Source of the DNA: Octopus vulgaris
Taxonomy: Eukaryota
DNA: 64,000 nt
Direction of reading: 5' to 3'
NCBI GenBank assembly: GCA_951406725.2
Contig: OX597835.1
Coordinates: 11,594,001-11,658,000, forward strand
Shown: piece after piece, positions 47,349-47,558 of the stretch
Position numbering within the stretch: position 1 is the first letter of the stretch
How the letters are laid out: each line of letters starts with the position of its first letter
Notes under the pieces: model-generated
What the model saw: only the letters and a program-made list of their open reading frames with translations
What the model was told of the DNA's origin: nothing
Databases searched by the model: none
Position numbers and translations under genes: made by a program

Positions 47349-47553
47349 ATGTGACCGCGTGTGTACCGTTGGCGATATTTTTTCCTCCGTCTTCCCTTCT
47401 CTGGACCTTTCCTTTTCCTATGTTTCTGACGAAGAGCTCCGCTCGAAACGTAAAACCCTCCTTCTTCCCTTCCTTCCTGAGCGTCCAATAATACTATATT
47501 CGTTCCACGTCCTTGCGTTGTTGTGTTTTCTCTTTGTGTTTTCATGTTTGGAT

Positions 47554-47558
<5 letters not shown>
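47349..47558 (+). mobile_element. ~208-bp hammerhead-bearing element, copy 4 (intact core)
   Basis: atgtgacc...ggattaact(AT)n; (TA)n on both sides. Confidence 0.85.
47422..47456 (+). ncRNA. Minimal type I hammerhead ribozyme motif
   Basis: GUUU CUGACGA A GAGC-UCC-GCUC GAAA CG UA AAAC: conserved core boxes, 4-bp stem II, stem I GUUU/AAAC and palindromic ACGU in place of stem III. Confidence 0.65.

Follow-up and report, generated by a model that had tools for sequence, protein, structure and literature searches.

The window, a 64,000-nt stretch of octopus DNA, carries four solo copies of one pseudo-LTR (pLTR) family. Copy 1 (4014..4223) and copy 2 (10652..10861) are located on the minus strand within (TA)n, and copy 3 (41577..41785) and copy 4 (47344..47558) on the plus strand, with a (TA)n tract at the 3' junction of copy 4 (47559..47610, plus strand). 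All four were found where an earlier note on this DNA had placed them, with 90.0-96.2% identity to copy 4 across 210 nt, and we corrected the 5' boundary of copy 4 to 47344 and that of copy 1 to approximately 4223. In what follows, pLTR coordinates are counted back from the last T of GGATTAACT, and ATGTGACC begins at -210; copy 4 starts at -215 and copy 3 at -210. The assertion that the copies share both ends and finish in (AT)n proved accurate for the 3' side, where each terminates in GGATTAACT followed by (TA)n, whereas the 5' ends are clustered but not identical. The lack of a tRNA head and of a credible ORF was likewise corroborated, since no tRNA gene was detected anywhere in the window, ruling out a tRNA-derived SINE, and tblastn of the window returned no open reading frame remnant of a Penelope-like element (PLE). 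Copies of the family shorter than these four were not found within the window, and long family copies extend more than 5 kb farther upstream than the four do.

Copy 4 contains a minimal type I hammerhead (47422..47456, plus strand), read from the sequence and by pattern scan. Stem I pairs 47422-47425 with 47453-47456, the core CUGACGA (47426-47432) is followed by an unpaired extra A (47433), stem II (47434-47444) pairs 47434-47437 with 47441-47444, and GAAA (47445-47448) opens the GAAA-CGU stretch (47445-47451), followed by H17 at A47452. A palindromic ACGU replaces stem III. The minimal core reported for this copy is present by pattern, and given this layout of stems and core, with A47452 as H17, the predicted cut after 47452 is correct. 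Extending the hammerhead to all four copies was justified only in part, as copy 4 is the sole window copy with the canonical core. Copies 1 and 3 read CCGACGA (U4C), copy 1 with an additional mismatch in stem I and copy 3 with H17 = U, and the hammerhead of copy 2 is broken by GUAA in place of GAAA and a stem II mismatch. A strict pattern scan recovers only copies 3 and 4. The covariance-model search recommended as a check came out negative: Rfam detected no hammerhead at gathering score across the window, nor at E<=10 around copy 4, and returned microsatellite-driven miRNA matches only, so that the motif is recognised by pattern only. When the four copies are folded by minimum free energy, the hammerhead does not appear, and monomer and dimer folds of the core gave an alternative hairpin; neither result is informative.

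Genome-wide searches covered the 2.8-Gb, 227-contig assembly that contains the window. Successive searches upstream of the unit revealed a ladder of 5' ends, leading across a 3' UTR, CA-rich and some 1.7 kb long, into same-strand coding pieces for a reverse transcriptase (RT), a C-X4-C-X2-C linker, and a GIY-YIG endonuclease; the Cys-linker lies between RT and GIY-YIG in two loci (L061 and P0121). Pfam matches were below the curated cut-off for both RVT_1 (E 1.5e-5, one of nine frames scanned) and GIY-YIG (E 6e-4, one of two frames), and a later scan added GIY-YIG, again under the curated cut-offs, in two more frames of the element and in one frame of an unrelated neighbor. Protein homologs at E<=1e-3 numbered 322, many with PF00078 and some with PF01541. 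A repeat-ORF-repeat arrangement was recognized in three of nine extended loci (L091, L095, and L096), where the upstream pLTRs start at about -448, -383, and -179 and continue as TTATATA, a match to the (TA)n target, into the head of the element. Because the upstream unit runs on in this manner, solos show two 3' endings, ATATAT in 79 and TTATAT in 49. Inverted copies are present as well (L030, L214/L215).

The RT and GIY-YIG pieces upstream, joined by the Cys-linker, together with the repeat-ORF-repeat loci, identify the unit, in our judgment with near certainty, as the pLTR of a PLE, left as solo copies. The Neptune-type designation relies on the Cys-rich linker and the domain order and is putative; the definition of Neptune comes from Arkhipova 2006. 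Upstream walking thus uncovered the long copies tied to RT and GIY-YIG that the earlier note had suggested looking for, and its link to a (TA)n-targeting PLE is upheld by these upstream domains and by insertion in (TA)n. A DNA-transposon end is ruled out by RT and GIY-YIG upstream. What is not supported is the idea of an independent non-autonomous, retrozyme-like family, given that the unit belongs to an RT- and GIY-YIG-encoding element and the solos form no lineage of their own. The element class, solo pLTRs that derive from a Neptune-type PLE and carry a minimal hammerhead, is already described, and the family may already carry a name in Repbase or Dfam. No paper on this octopus hammerhead/Penelope family was found in open-access text; a repeat annotation of an octopus genome names Penelope-like families, and the accessible portion of its main text contains neither "hammerhead" nor "Neptune" (PMC13282606).

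Frames beside the studied pLTR, on the strand of the repeat, are broken, and no intact ORF attached to exactly this pLTR was found; intact frames, among them a stop-free frame of 1008 aa, belong to the pLTR of a sister subfamily. A protein search turned up many sister copies in which long frames are open, and several of the 15 stretches retrieved from it contain stop-free 1008-1009-aa frames in 6.2-kb units, some of them in tandem, and the sister pLTR is 74-80% identical to the studied unit. An apparently young sister Neptune-type lineage comprises near-identical 6.2-kb units with stop-free 883-1009-aa frames and tandem arrays (C10:97804001-97830000, L279-L281; C16:15979001-15996000, L287-L288; and L282-L286), and its hammerhead combines U4C with a U-U mismatch in stem I. 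A second abundant (TA)n-ended family has the same stem II, a CUGUNGA core (A6 to U), and a covaried stem I, and is about as frequent as the studied family in arbitrary stretches. It is represented in the window by a decayed copy with (TA)n at its end and a stem I of the CUUU/AAAG type (50985..51144, minus strand, bounds approximate) and elsewhere by L174, L194, L231, L235, L237, L239, and L242. A third minimal hammerhead family (L146, L163, and L170) has a canonical core, ACAC/GUGU as stem I, and a longer stem II. The GIY-YIG frame of yet another Penelope-like family lies beside a full-length element in one locus (L091:7121-7879, minus strand).

U4C is found in 83 of 185 aligned copies of the studied family and in 79 of the first 100 exact matches listed for the hammerhead pattern, and the canonical core is in the minority. 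The hammerhead is identical in 33 of 33 nt to that of the young sister pLTR, compared with 79% in the aligned flanks, and the outer pair of stem I, G-C in the studied family, is C-G in the second one. Conservation and stem covariation, which the earlier note had proposed to assess, are therefore seen between families, but the family itself shows no covariation; its core positions have undergone decay of the CpG type, and inserted copies decay at CpG like their flanks. The identity between families and the compensation in stem I imply that the motif is under constraint among source elements, and it appears to decay once copies are inserted. U4C is reported to lower activity in vitro considerably while still allowing viroid infectivity (PMC3088659). 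As ACGU is unable to form a closed hairpin, a dimer would be required for cleavage, which has also been proposed for minimal PLE hammerheads, whose activity was low (PMC4209133). For the predicted hammerhead to cut, a dimer or the help of a protein would be necessary, and it is probably not needed for making solos.

The family is abundant. An exact 31-nt hammerhead pattern matched 10,086 times genome-wide, the reversed control pattern 0 times, and 75 of the first 100 matches listed belong to the pLTR family and 25 to sister subfamilies, judged by the H17 base and counted by hand. A DNA search of the assembly produced 3,948 candidate copies, and eight copies in 59 arbitrary 10-kb stretches (590 kb) extrapolate to about 38,000 genome-wide (95% Poisson interval, 16,000-75,000).

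Anchoring the search in the last 65 nt of the pLTR made it insensitive to where the 5' end falls. Among 60 copies anchored in this way, two of which are the window's own, 42 start in -219..-196, 5 farther upstream, and 13 nearer the 3' end, some of the latter under-called by local alignment. Similarly, the first 30 hammerhead matches by position included 22 of the pLTR family, a sample that leaves out eight matches with H17 = C, and 15 of the 22 start in this interval, with two longer and five shorter. All eight copies from the 590 kb of arbitrary stretches start between -231 and -196. Per nucleotide, the stop rate is 0.054 in -196..-219 versus 0.0045 and 0.0007 nearer the 3' end (values entered by hand). 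The fixed length ascribed to the element in the earlier note accordingly holds insofar as most starts occupy 24 nt, but starts are clustered rather than fixed and some copies are longer or shorter. No pile-up of 5' ends was found at the predicted ribozyme cut site (-106), near which only one of the 60 starts lies.

The wall itself is located at the A of TCATTC (-217), which we take to be an initiator-like word. Exact 25-mers beginning at -217 number 1,174, and at least 589 of them lack the base of the element at -218. Of 30 inspected loci with this 25-mer, 23 end at -219..-217 and 7 pass -219, mostly by about 10 nt, one of these being long. In the first 100 listed copies that end at -217, the preceding base is T in 83, G in 12, and A in 5, and at the control start, -210, it is T in 87, C in 11, and G in 2 (both hand counts). 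Summarized as 12/95 at -217 versus 2/89 at -210, the excess of G over T gives a Fisher p of 0.010, or 0.044 without about 20 control rows of a subfamily variant, and two of the 12 G-preceded copies sit in one tandem locus; the effect is modest. Untemplated G at full-length insertions has been attributed to copying of the cap (PMC3287187).

Head-to-tail junctions are rare: the exact pattern used recovered nine at eight loci genome-wide, with at most three units seen. Two have a TA spacer; in the other seven, the 3' end abuts -219..-215 directly, and the letters at the join differ, as expected of independent template jumps. Of 111 wall-class solos, 103 have TA repeats at the 3' junction and 60 have them directly upstream. 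Both main start points, -217 and -210, begin with AT, and microhomology with (TA)n therefore shapes the peak. We found no description of such a sharp, cap-like 5' wall in open-access literature text. In two loci (L016 and L027), the upstream flank contains short repeats of the first bases of the element (ATTCAAAATG) before the solo, resembling aborted restarts at the 5' junction.

The relation of solos to long copies was addressed with 185 de-duplicated copies (139 solo and 46 long), a set in which the choice of queries biased the sampling. With one exception, all large haplotypes include long copies. On a tree of 158 near-complete units, of low support and with 27 shorter copies left out, long and solo copies interleave, and the long label requires 30 changes compared with 36.7 after shuffling; label changes as few as those observed arose in 4 of 500 shuffles, a contrast inflated by near-copies and by the sampling bias. 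A single clade, with 13 copies from the sample (weak support, 86/75), contains none classed as long, and two of its members extend to -244 and -265. This pattern favors repeated production from autonomous sources and is compatible with some self-propagation. Sequence of the element head follows the pLTR only in three internal pLTRs among the 185 copies, and solos with a tail of 30-40 nt beyond the pLTR were not found among them.

We consider it probable, with a good deal of room for doubt, that the solos are pLTR copies generated by internal priming at the 5' pLTR end and run-off at the capped start of the RNA. Pol II would start at the initiator-like A of TCATTC (-217), GIY-YIG would nick (TA)n, and the nicked strand would pair with TTATA(TA) at the pLTR/ORF junction. 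On a one-unit transcript this junction would lie about 217 nt from the cap, and run-off would thus give a cDNA that matches the solos in length, in some cases carrying a G copied from the cap or cut back slightly, by a few bases, as far as the next AT microhomology (-210). With priming at the 5' junction, single-unit transcripts would give mostly 217-nt solos, and only tandem read-through would yield full copies; long copies and upstream pLTRs of more than 217 nt would need such tandem templates, and these are present in the sister lineage. Solos would then be by-products at a dead end rather than units that propagate themselves. The individual steps, namely, initiator start, TTATA priming, run-off, and tandem templates, are inferred and seem to us somewhat better than an even bet. 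A capped start is suggested by the initiator-like motif, the wall, and the modest G excess, and the chances appear evenly balanced that solos record, base for base, both where the capped RNA begins and where priming takes place internally, on a word matching (TA)n.

The only tested precedent is a PLE of the anole, for which it was shown that reverse transcription begins within the RNA, at the junction of pLTR and ORF, that downstream ORF RNA is needed, with a protein-binding site downstream of the junction, and that AT-rich DNA is cut (PMC11167929). In that account, hammerhead cleavage was unnecessary in vitro and was seen only with protein added, and the priming site, devoid of homology to the target, leaves a tail of 30-40 nt (PMC11167929). 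Considering the absence of tailed solos among the 185 octopus copies and the match of TTATA to the target, the proposed TTATA-priming step would differ from this case.

The same solos might instead be ordinary 5'-truncated copies primed at the 3' pLTR, with RT stalling at about -217 and the cDNA joining the target by AT microhomology. We see a limited chance for this, in view of AT at both start peaks, the TA repeats directly upstream of 60 of the 111 wall-class solos, and the fact that 5' truncation is the rule among PLEs (PMC8557442). Yet AT/TA words at -191, -184, -154, -140, and -107 catch far fewer ends, and neither the G excess nor head-to-tail junctions at the same point would be expected from a stall. 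The wall and the cap G would also be predicted if transcription of an initiator-bearing solo ran on into the solo's own (TA)n tail and the Neptune protein copied the RNA in trans, that is, if the solos were a self-propagating non-autonomous family. It is tempting to view the excess of solos over long copies and the sampled clade without a copy classed as long in this light; nevertheless, we hold it to be rather unlikely, since the large haplotypes contain long copies with a single exception, long copies are spread over the tree, the initiator-like motif is lost in most solos, and solos lack the RNA downstream of the pLTR that the anole PLE needs (PMC11167929).

A true retrozyme, whose tandem units cleave as dimers, circularize, and are reverse transcribed by a rolling mechanism, would fit the palindromic ACGU in place of stem III, which suits dimer cleavage (PMC4209133), and the few dimers and trimers that exist. 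It is very improbable given nine junctions at eight loci against thousands of copies, junction letters that differ, unit ends that flank the cut site at a distance of about 105 nt each, and U4C as the majority core. Recombination between the two pLTRs of full-length elements in the manner of solo LTRs, proposed for some rotifer solo pLTRs (PMC3846280), can be discounted almost entirely: the three upstream pLTRs do not start at the wall, and full-length copies are far rarer than solos.

In descriptions of Neptune PLEs (PMC8557442, PMC3846280), the octopus element finds its RT, Cys-rich linker (here C-X4-C-X2-C), and C-terminal GIY-YIG, its flanking pLTRs, partial or full tandems, inverted 5' copies, and hammerhead in the pLTR, and its microsatellite bias, here toward (TA)n. 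It differs from them in the CA-rich 3' UTR of about 1.7 kb and in the predominance of near-unit-length solo pLTRs lacking the 30-40-nt tail, an optional PLE feature. With the minimal hammerheads of metazoan PLEs (Cervera and de la Pena 2014, PMC4209133, in part) it shares a short stem I, an unpaired base between 9 and 10.1, the G10.1-C11.1 pair, palindromic 15.2-16.2, and the occurrence as mostly single dispersed motifs; in contrast to these, stem II has only 4 bp, the majority core is U4C, and the youngest sister has U-U in stem I. The anole Poseidon element PAc (Frangieh et al. 2024, PMC11167929, in part) resembles it in initiation fixed where pLTR and ORF meet, which is what we propose here, an AT-rich target, AC-rich sequence beside the start site, and a hammerhead apparently dispensable for insertion. 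PAc primes without target homology and has two start sites bounding the tail, whereas in the octopus TTATA(TA) is the sequence of the start site itself and a single end predominates. The retrozymes of the non-LTR kind described from animals (Li, Clavereau and Pollet 2026, 10.64898/2026.07.22.740005) likewise consist of type I hammerhead units that are short, non-coding, and related to pLTRs, with dispersed monomers, but they are defined by tandem units with a hammerhead in each; in the octopus, such arrays are very rare and the unit corresponds colinearly to the terminal part of an element that bears an ORF.

How PLEs transpose is poorly understood, and the process has been reconstituted for just a single element. 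The octopus offers abundant natural data in which both ends are sharp, together with a sister lineage, apparently young, whose ORFs are stop-free, which makes three points testable: where reverse transcription begins, why single dispersed hammerheads are more numerous than full elements, and whether cutting by the minimal hammerhead is necessary. If internal priming and run-off at the cap are indeed the source of the solos, they would constitute genomic in vivo evidence of internal initiation outside the Poseidon clade and point to a general route for the birth of retrozyme monomers, and the invariant 33-nt hammerhead with its U4C core would serve a job other than unaided cleavage.

Apart from these families, the window holds palindromic MITE-like stretches (10874-11117, abutting copy 2; 16001-16211; and 16694-16927) and tandem arrays with periods of about 142 bp (5272-6551) and about 161 bp (about 27777-29410). 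Two dispersed families of about 400 bp, each with 91-97% identity, are located at 8528-8932, 14403-14787, 22567-22970, and 52775-53144 and at 21763-22169, 43098-43500, and 53477-53891, respectively, and a 1-kb repeat pair of 80% identity occupies 36678-37664 and 62887-63870.
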